64,000 nucleotides of DNA from Escherichia coli (GTDB lineage Bacteria > Pseudomonadota > Gammaproteobacteria > Enterobacterales > Enterobacteriaceae). Shown here in pieces: positions 59,735-60,044 of this stretch. Under the pieces are notes generated by a model. That model saw only the letters and a list, made by a program, of their open reading frames with translations, was not told where the DNA came from and ran no database searches. Numbering within the stretch: the stretch's first letter is position 1; each line of letters opens with the position of its first letter. A program made the translations under genes and the position numbers. The DNA is taken from NCBI RefSeq assembly GCF_030384885.1, contig NZ_CP128613.1. The stretch is one strand, 5' to 3'.

Positions 59735-59917
59735 TTAATCCTTTTGTTTGGCAGACATGAGATCTTCTGCTGCATCTTTAGAGTAGTTATCAATCAGATA
59801 ACCTAAAATCTCTGTCCATGTAATTGTTTTTCCTAGTTTTACACTGGCATTTATAGCCAGTCGTTCTAGTTTCATTTTTCTTTCTTCCGTCACGTTATAA
59901 GTCGTGCGCTTTGCCAT
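59735..59917 (-). CDS. Small ribbon-helix-helix-like DNA-binding protein (60 aa); candidate prophage repressor or antitoxin, divergent from gII
   Basis: MAKRTTYNVTEERKMKLERLAINASVKLGKTITWTEILGYLIDNY... has the beta-strand/helix/helix pattern of RHH regulators; sits where integrative inoviruses carry their repressor. Confidence 0.5.
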   Translation of the reverse strand: MAKRTTYNVTEERKMKLERLAINASVKLGKTITWTEILGYLIDNYSKDAAEDLMSAKQKD

Positions 59918-60044
59918 TTTTTACGCTCGTTCAATGCAATATTTGAAGTGAGTATACATGCTCATGAACTCATATCATCCAAGCCTCTTGAACTCACTAG
60001 CTCACTGGTGTAATGTTTAAACACTAATGAACTACTGAACTCAT
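59918..60044. promoter_or_regulatory. Prophage divergent control region / candidate replication origin with TGAACTCA iterons (59965, 59989, 60028, 60036) and short palindromes
   Basis: Repeated TGAACT(C/A) octamers and CTCACT repeats between the RHH gene and gII. Confidence 0.4.

Follow-up and report, generated by a model that had tools for sequence, protein, structure and literature searches.

A 60-aa protein encoded divergently from the replication initiator gene gII of a filamentous prophage in Escherichia coli is most probably a ribbon-helix-helix (RHH) repressor acting on 8-bp boxes upstream of gII, which would make it a counterpart of the CTXphi repressor RstR and the boxes something other than a replication origin. 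The prophage is CUS-1/YpfPhi-like, is inserted at dif beside hipBA and occupies the right end, from about position 58114 onward, of the 64-kb window analysed here, by which we mean the whole 64,000-nucleotide stretch of contig NZ_CP128613.1. The reality of the gene, the predicted fold of its product, its homology to some RstR alleles, the conservation of the boxes, their 8-bp register, their co-variation with the N-terminal ribbon of the protein and the bounds of an exchangeable cassette were computed, and from these we infer DNA binding, promoter positions, repression and immunity. Systems of this kind are already known, both as an immunity repressor with operators before a phage replication gene and as an RHH protein on phased boxes. 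A literature search combining the two terms found no link between rstR and ribbon-helix-helix proteins, and no RHH repressor of this sort is apparent from the titles and abstracts of papers on filamentous phages.

That the 60-aa open reading frame (ORF) is a real gene divergent from gII, as the initial annotation held, is borne out by a match to phrog_2503 (E 3.6e-34; the function of this phrog is unknown), by its presence as a coding sequence, labelled hypothetical protein, in the PGAP annotation, and by at least 1000 contigs, of Salmonella, E. coli, Klebsiella and further Enterobacteriaceae, that encode the identical protein. The start of gII, which had been placed at GTG 60045 behind a spacer of 127 bp, has to be moved. 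GTG 60087 is the start used by PGAP in an identical prophage, position 1 of the Pfam profile falls on residue 1 counted from this codon, and similarity to CUS-1 picks up again at 60088. Because gII starts at GTG 60087, the spacer between the two genes is 169 bp long (Table 1), and part of a third repeat cluster (60045-60051) sits in what had been taken for gII coding sequence.

The repeat unit in this spacer is an 8-bp box, TGA(A/G)(C/T)TCA, found either as TGAACTCA or as its complement TGAGTTCA, and the boxes form three sites, O1, O2 and O3, of one, two and three boxes in strict 8-bp register. The four octamers reported earlier are all present (TGAACTCA at 59965, 59989 and 60036, and TGAACTAC at 60028). 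The CTCACT repeats described alongside them do occur twice, at 59993 and 60000, but are merely the ends of the adjoining boxes TGAACTCA and CTAGCTCA, the second of which is degenerate. Any octamer was present three times in the spacer in only 21 of 20,000 dinucleotide-preserving shuffles, and the same signal is seen at only four places in the window, one of them the glycine-rich repeat of gIII; TGARYTCA itself matches the whole window five times, three of these inside the spacer. Conservation of the repeats in related prophages, on which the initial annotation had let its reading depend, is found: in an alignment with relatives the repeats are the conserved part of the spacer, and the layout of one, two and three boxes is kept with nearly equal spacing in the related loci L010-L013. 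Three-box sites stand at the place of O3 in L011, L013, L010 and L015, and O2 of L013 is a perfect palindrome, TGAACTCATGAGTTCA. Boxes are also present in L015, L016, L017 and Dulem virus 53, though these spacers are unalignable elsewhere.

The boxes vary together with the ribbon of the regulator. Across the eight spacers that go with a TYN(V/I) ribbon, several of which are mutually homologous, 17 exact TGARYTCA are present in a total of 1151 bp, where shuffles average 0.09, and there are 22 box pairs exactly 8 bp apart against 0.26 expected, with peaks in the distance distribution at 8, 16 and 24. The spacers of the other ribbon classes (863 bp) contain no exact TGARYTCA. Ribbons of the form TYN(V/I), in the window, L010-L013, L015-L017 and Dulem virus 53, go with TGARYTCA boxes; T(T/S)VRIN ribbons, in pre-CTX and VAI2, go with ATTGCATGC-type repeats; and TTMAIV ribbons, in If1 and Dickeya, go with GTTATGC-type repeats. 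Three ribbon classes with three box classes are what a model in which the ribbon reads the box predicts, and the matching hints, indirectly, that this reading may be sequence-specific.

In the structural models the protein consists of a ribbon (about residues 3-10), helix A (11-28) and helix B (34-59). The AlphaFold monomer has an extended N-terminus followed by two helices (pLDDT 90). A dimer, modelled as two copies fused by a Gly/Ser linker with an alignment of 37 sequences, has pLDDT above 90 outside the linker, a pTM of 0.75 and strands at 4-10 and 89-95, which pair together, being the only strands in the model. The strand-helix-helix topology and the paired N-terminal strands of the RHH fold are both present in these models, and a table of fold comparisons lists TraY at 7.3 over 95 aligned residues, permuted single-chain Arc and DndE at 5.4 each, and AvtR at 5.0. 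With hhalign the family profile matches ParG (the sequence used is identical to 1P94 chain A) over the whole RHH domain with a probability of 85% and E 6e-6, and the RHH domain of CopG is likewise covered in full (E 9e-4); a profile search of the PDB recovers helix B of ParG only, at E 0.08-0.23. An RHH-like protein had been proposed in the initial annotation, and on these predictions the RHH assignment is likely.

ParG of TP228 (PDB 1P94) is the best profile match, covering the strand, helix A and helix B, and it offers the closest comparison for the boxes as well. Its ribbon, KRVNVNFD, shares with KRTTYNVT of the window protein the Lys-Arg pair and one Asn in the hhalign register. Both sets of boxes have an ACTC core, a centre-to-centre distance of 8 bp, direct or inverted orientation and an array downstream of a -10 element, in the window a putative one. 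The window family differs from ParG in a 6-residue insertion past helix A, required by the alignments with both ParG and CopG, and in a longer helix B; ParG, for its part, has a flexible N-terminal tail and binds a centromere together with the ParF ATPase, and no ParA was seen in the prophage within the window. RHH dimers also cooperate along short tandem DNA units in the met-box arrays of MetJ and the heptad arrays of the omega repressor; no sequence relationship with either was tested for or found, and MetJ, in a further difference from the model for the 60-aa protein, requires a co-repressor. ParG reads degenerate ACTC boxes with 4-bp spacers, in either orientation and as cooperative dimers, at an operator downstream of the -10 element; MetJ is discussed in the same paper (PMC3413123).

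Comparison with E. coli NU14, which carries a prophage of this group with an 86%-identical Rep, shows that the regulator and the spacer are swapped as one block. DNA similarity to NU14 (92%) stops at 59745, ten bases from the regulator stop codon, and returns (80%) at 60088, the second base of the gII start codon. In the same slot NU14 has a non-homologous 148-aa HTH_3 protein and an unrelated 171-bp spacer without boxes. In L010-L013, by contrast, the boxes are retained beside regulators of 59-86% identity, with Reps that match the window Rep at only 27-36% identity over some 43 residues. The boxes thus follow the regulator and not Rep, since they are absent at 86% Rep identity and kept with almost unrelated Reps, and the term iteron used in the initial annotation has to be dropped: the boxes are putative operators, not iterons. 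From the breakpoints at 59745 and 60088 it also follows that the regulator and spacer constitute an exchangeable cassette, one that, to judge from sequence comparison, behaves as an immunity cassette. Among complete E. coli genomes 47 have this cassette and about 100 share the left flank only, with an HTH gene instead.

The likeness to the rstR-ig-rstA arrangement, also suggested in the initial annotation, is upheld by this exchangeable regulator-spacer unit and by homology to some RstR proteins at about 40% identity. With the El Tor and classical RstR/ig-2/rstA regions of CTXphi the locus shares a divergent repressor, (putative) operators in the spacer and block variation between conserved flanks. 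The 339- and 336-bp genes of RstR-ET and RstR-class, however, encode products of some 112 aa, the window protein being 60 aa long with a predicted RHH fold, and no similarity between it and these HTH-type alleles was detected. In CTXphi these alleles correspond to the HTH-type YpfPhi protein YPO2273, itself proposed as an RstR counterpart, whose role, in the words of a YpfPhi review, 'awaits experimental demonstration' (PMC4266046). The YPO2273/CUS-1 regulator occupies the same slot as the 60-aa protein, next to an 86%-identical Rep and a 92%-identical left flank; it differs, in its NU14 form, in being non-homologous (148 aa, HTH_3) and in facing a spacer with a different, long inverted repeat.

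Homologues in phage genomes were sought by tblastn. The matches include the genes annotated as rstR in CTXphi/pre-CTXphi GQ466611 and KR063268 (40.7% identity), the 'RstR-like' gene of Vibrio phages VAI1/2, genes of uncultured inoviruses and an unannotated ORF in the 'major intergenic region' of If1 (58.5% identity); at the DNA level 59600-60300 has no match in the phage collection. The 'environmental' RstR proteins of GQ466611 and KR063268 and the RstR-like proteins of VAI1/2 are homologous to the window protein at 40-42% identity over 95% of its length (E 2e-6 to 6e-6), and their genes have the same position and orientation beside a spacer of about 130-135 bp with repeats. They differ in the TTVRINE ribbon, in the ATTGCATGC repeats and in their Vibrio hosts, and neither their annotations nor the literature consulted labels them RHH proteins. 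Each of the heteroimmune rstR/ig-2 alleles of CTXphi represses its own ig-2 promoter only, and repression and superinfection immunity have been shown for eight rstR alleles, including the short, 192-bp rstR-6 (PMC11509585). The primer-derived ends of rstR-6 (MKKKYTSLRV... and ...NTQKTDLKR) fit the 60-aa family, and this allele probably belongs with the 'environmental' ones. As annotated, the rstR genes of pre-CTX KR063268 (L009, 2435-2695) and GQ466611 (L001, 1-261) have 86 codons; the conserved Met of the family, at 2501 in L009, gives a 64-codon gene and a 135-bp spacer, and both genes have probably been annotated 22 codons too early. PM2 P16, described as 'CTX-I RstR' (PMC12715192), was considered as a further relative and rejected: the leftward PM2 regulator in the region examined is annotated as HTH, and PM2 is not among the tblastn matches.

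An exhaustive profile search gathers 163 clusters at 50% identity, nearly all of 58-90 aa, and the named entries among the 120 matches listed are all hypothetical proteins, bar one with an automated 'TraY' label. Fifteen of the relatives' loci examined include sequenced DNA upstream of the gene, and in 14 of these it is divergent from a replication gene of Phage_CRI/G2P_X_C type, or annotated as such, with a gap of 117-166 bp between the two genes where the locus is intact. The exception is L018 (1501-2473), where the distant homologue P0141 lies directly upstream of a gene for a ParA/MipZ-type ATPase, as in ParG-ParF. In the relatives P0103 and P0129 (130-142 aa) a single chain contains two tandem copies of the domain.

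In If1 (NC_001954; L003, reverse complement, 23-3336) a 63-aa homologue, unannotated and 58% identical, is encoded at 3145-3336, and an IS200/IS605 element lies between it and the replication gene, so that the repressor gene has been parted from its operators. The annotated 'ORF348' is the OrfB/TnpB of IS605, an unannotated 147-aa ORF is the IS200 Y1 transposase, and 'ORF320' is the real gII, with its N-terminus truncated in the annotation. The insertion might bear on the non-temperate behaviour of If1.

The promoters proposed for the spacer (Table 1) place the three sites where a repressor could act. The TTGAAC taken as the -35 element of gII is identical in the four Enterobacteriaceae relatives and is followed, 15-17 bp away, by a weak -10 element at about 60009-60016 (TGTAAT/TAATGT) behind a conserved GTGTA; for the leftward promoter of the regulator the -10 element is conserved in relatives and the -35 element is not. 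O2 overlaps the -35 element and spacer of the putative gII promoter, O3 lies just downstream of its -10 element, and O1 lies inside the spacer of the putative leftward promoter. On the model we favour, the 60-aa protein would act as a dimeric RHH repressor whose N-terminal ribbon, KRTTYNVT, reads the TGA(A/G)(C/T)TCA boxes with their ACTC/GAGT core, and dimers on boxes 8 bp apart would bind cooperatively, like ParG and MetJ. The two boxes of O2 would then cover the -35 element and spacer of the gII promoter, the three of O3 would lie just downstream of its start site and the single box of O1 inside the regulator's own promoter. Occupied boxes would silence gII and the phage genes after it and so keep the prophage quiet, would bar an incoming phage with these boxes from replicating (immunity), and would let the repressor limit its own expression. 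Regulator and boxes would travel jointly and be replaceable by a non-homologous HTH cassette. If this is true, changing TGAACTCA to TGCCCTCA, or altering the box spacing by 1 bp in either direction, would abolish binding.

Several observations weigh against this model. Pfam has no match for the 60-aa protein or for ten relatives, no NCBIfam-style name or solved structure covering the family was found, and Foldseek returned no significant match. The dimer model was built with an artificial linker, and the hhalign match of the family profile to CopG (E 9e-4) has a probability of only 23%. The counts of boxes and box pairs overstate independence to the extent that the spacers counted are homologous to one another. 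The hexamers of the gII promoter are weak and a consensus scan did not call it, the membership of rstR-6 in the family is a partial link through about 19 primer-deduced residues, and some family members, such as the homologue beside the ParA/MipZ-type gene, are probably partition proteins, not phage repressors.

The boxes might instead be iterons bound by gpII, and the spacer the plus-strand origin, with the small protein incidental or an accessory to nicking, in the way that TraY assists the F relaxase at oriT. We regard this as very improbable. The NU14 Rep is 86% identical to that of the window, yet its spacer is unrelated and boxless, and boxes are kept in phages whose Reps share a mere 27-36% identity over some 43 residues; because the cassette is swapped, a Rep-specific site should not lie inside it. 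A search for the f1 nick motif found no f1-type motif in the spacer. The only f1-like stretch is CACGTTCTTTA (about 59678-59688, minus strand), which is identical to 11 nt of the f1 nick region; it is outside the cassette, on the strand opposite to that expected of a plus-strand origin, and could be due to chance. In CTXphi, moreover, the site nicked by RstA is in Ig-1, across rstR from ig-2, and not in ig-2 itself (PMC8265649). A plus-strand origin within the spacer, as the initial annotation had entertained, is thus unlikely in view of the swap at 86% Rep identity and the lack of an f1-type nick motif there, and the search for ori(+) should go outside the cassette. Still less can be said for chance, to which we assign almost no weight: the ORF is short and Pfam-negative, and octamer matches with one mismatch occur at background level across the window, but the shuffle tests and the conservation of both ORF and boxes across genera speak against a compositional artefact around an ORF that is not a gene.

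Two other roles for an RHH protein deserve mention. Many such proteins are autoregulating antitoxins, and the regulator gene is followed on its strand by one for a small, 140-aa membrane protein (59224-59646), which could be the toxin, the boxes then being an autoregulatory operator. An 88-bp gap with terminator-like hairpins, however, parts the two genes, CUS-1 retains the membrane-protein gene (92% DNA identity) beside an unrelated HTH regulator, other genes lie downstream in relatives, and most of the boxes are on the gII side of the spacer, so that we find an antitoxin hard to credit. A ParG-like partition protein, with the boxes as a centromere stabilising the replicative form, would agree with ParG as the closest profile match, with the homologue that precedes a ParA-like gene and with an 8-bp register like that of ParG (PMC3413123). 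Against it stand the lack of any ParA-type ATPase seen in the prophage within the window or in the loci examined of the other relatives, the overlap of the sites with promoter elements, and the position of homologues in the rstR slot of CTX-type phages; we consider a partition role for the window protein a poor prospect.

Beyond this one locus, we incline, with some reserve, to a broader view of the RHH repressor. The family, unrecognised as RHH and lacking a Pfam model, would form a second, non-homologous class of 'RstR' repressor in filamentous phages of Enterobacteriaceae, Vibrionaceae and Pasteurellaceae and in uncultured inoviruses, each working on ribbon-matched arrays in 8-bp phase; it would set heteroimmunity groups among the dif prophages of E. 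coli and Salmonella, and the If1 copy would be one cut off from its operators. Such a class would account for some short CTXphi 'rstR' alleles that are unlike the classical ones. Pathogenic E. coli, Salmonella and Yersinia commonly carry filamentous prophages at dif, and such a repressor bears on what silences them and on which phages can live side by side; a predicted fold, an 8-bp operator box, three sites and cassette bounds bring immunity and induction within direct reach of experiments on a 60-aa protein and a 170-bp fragment. The paired classes of ribbon and box also offer a natural set of orthogonal small repressors, an idea already exploited in designer repressors based on ParG (PMC3413123).

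The features of the locus and its surroundings are collected in Table 1.

Table 1. Features of the prophage left end and the gII control region (positions in the 64-kb window)
Feature	Position	Strand	Remarks
dif-like junction, GGTGCGCATAATGT CAACGCG TTATGTTGAAA	58114-58144		78 bp past hipA
Strong GC hairpin	58146-58181		next after the dif-like junction
Gene for AbiJ_NTD4 + DUF7014 (HEPN-like) protein	58211-59140	-	adjoins attL
Gene for 140-aa membrane protein	59224-59646	-	
Two hairpins directly past the regulator stop codon	59719-59734 and 59689-59717	-	followed by TTCTTTATT on the minus strand
60-aa regulator gene, MAKRTTYNVTEERK...	59735-59917	-	
Exchangeable cassette (regulator gene + spacer)	59746-60087		swapped as a block in CUS-1/YpfPhi-type prophages
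Divergent control spacer, 169 bp	59918-60086		from regulator start codon to true gII start codon
Leftward regulator promoter, putative	59951-59978	-	promoter scan; -35 ATGATA 59978-59973, 16 nt, -10 TATACT 59956-59951
Weak box CATGCTCA	59957-59964		beside O1
O1, one exact box TGAACTCA	59965-59972	+	same aligned position in L010-L013
Rightward gII promoter, putative	59988-60016	+	sequence and alignment; -35 TTGAAC 59988-59993
O2, two adjoining boxes TGAACTCA + CTAGCTCA	59989-60004	+	second box degenerate
O3, three adjoining boxes TGAACTAC + TGAACTCA + TGTGTTAG	60028-60051	+	third box degenerate
gII Shine-Dalgarno GAGGA	60075-60079	+	7 nt ahead of GTG 60087
gII replication initiator gene, 350 aa	60087-61139	+	GTG start; Phage_CRI E 7e-71, G2P_X_C E 2e-29

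CUS-1 and YpfPhi are the nearest described phages, and the prophage follows hipB and hipA, which end at 58036. Its dif-like junction has a central region that appears longer than that of canonical dif, and no exact dif was found in the window; together with the GC hairpin (window 58092-58210) the junction is 91% conserved in NU14. Rightward from gII the order is a G5P-like ssDNA-binding protein, the gp8 major coat protein, gIII, gVI and the start of gI. The hairpins past the regulator stop codon, in a conserved 88 bp, have a fold z-score of -5.4, and hairpin B shows compensatory changes relative to NU14; they are outside the cassette and kept in CUS-1, and together with TTCTTTATT are probably the intrinsic terminator of the regulator transcript.

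The AbiJ_NTD4/DUF7014 protein next to the junction is likely to be anti-phage defence cargo. Its slot is variable, with other genes there in NU14 and in strain 20Y000092. The same regulator occurs twice in CP094943 (L013 and L014, 7.9 kb apart) and twice in Dickeya CP040817 (L019 and L020, 8.4 kb apart); these are tandem prophage copies, the arrangement that CTXphi needs for replication from the chromosome. Another of the four places in the window at which an octamer recurs threefold lies upstream of hipB (about 56261-56430), where GCGGATAA is present three times in 169 bp, a repeat signature of the same kind as in the gII spacer, and these repeats may mark the operators of hipBA.

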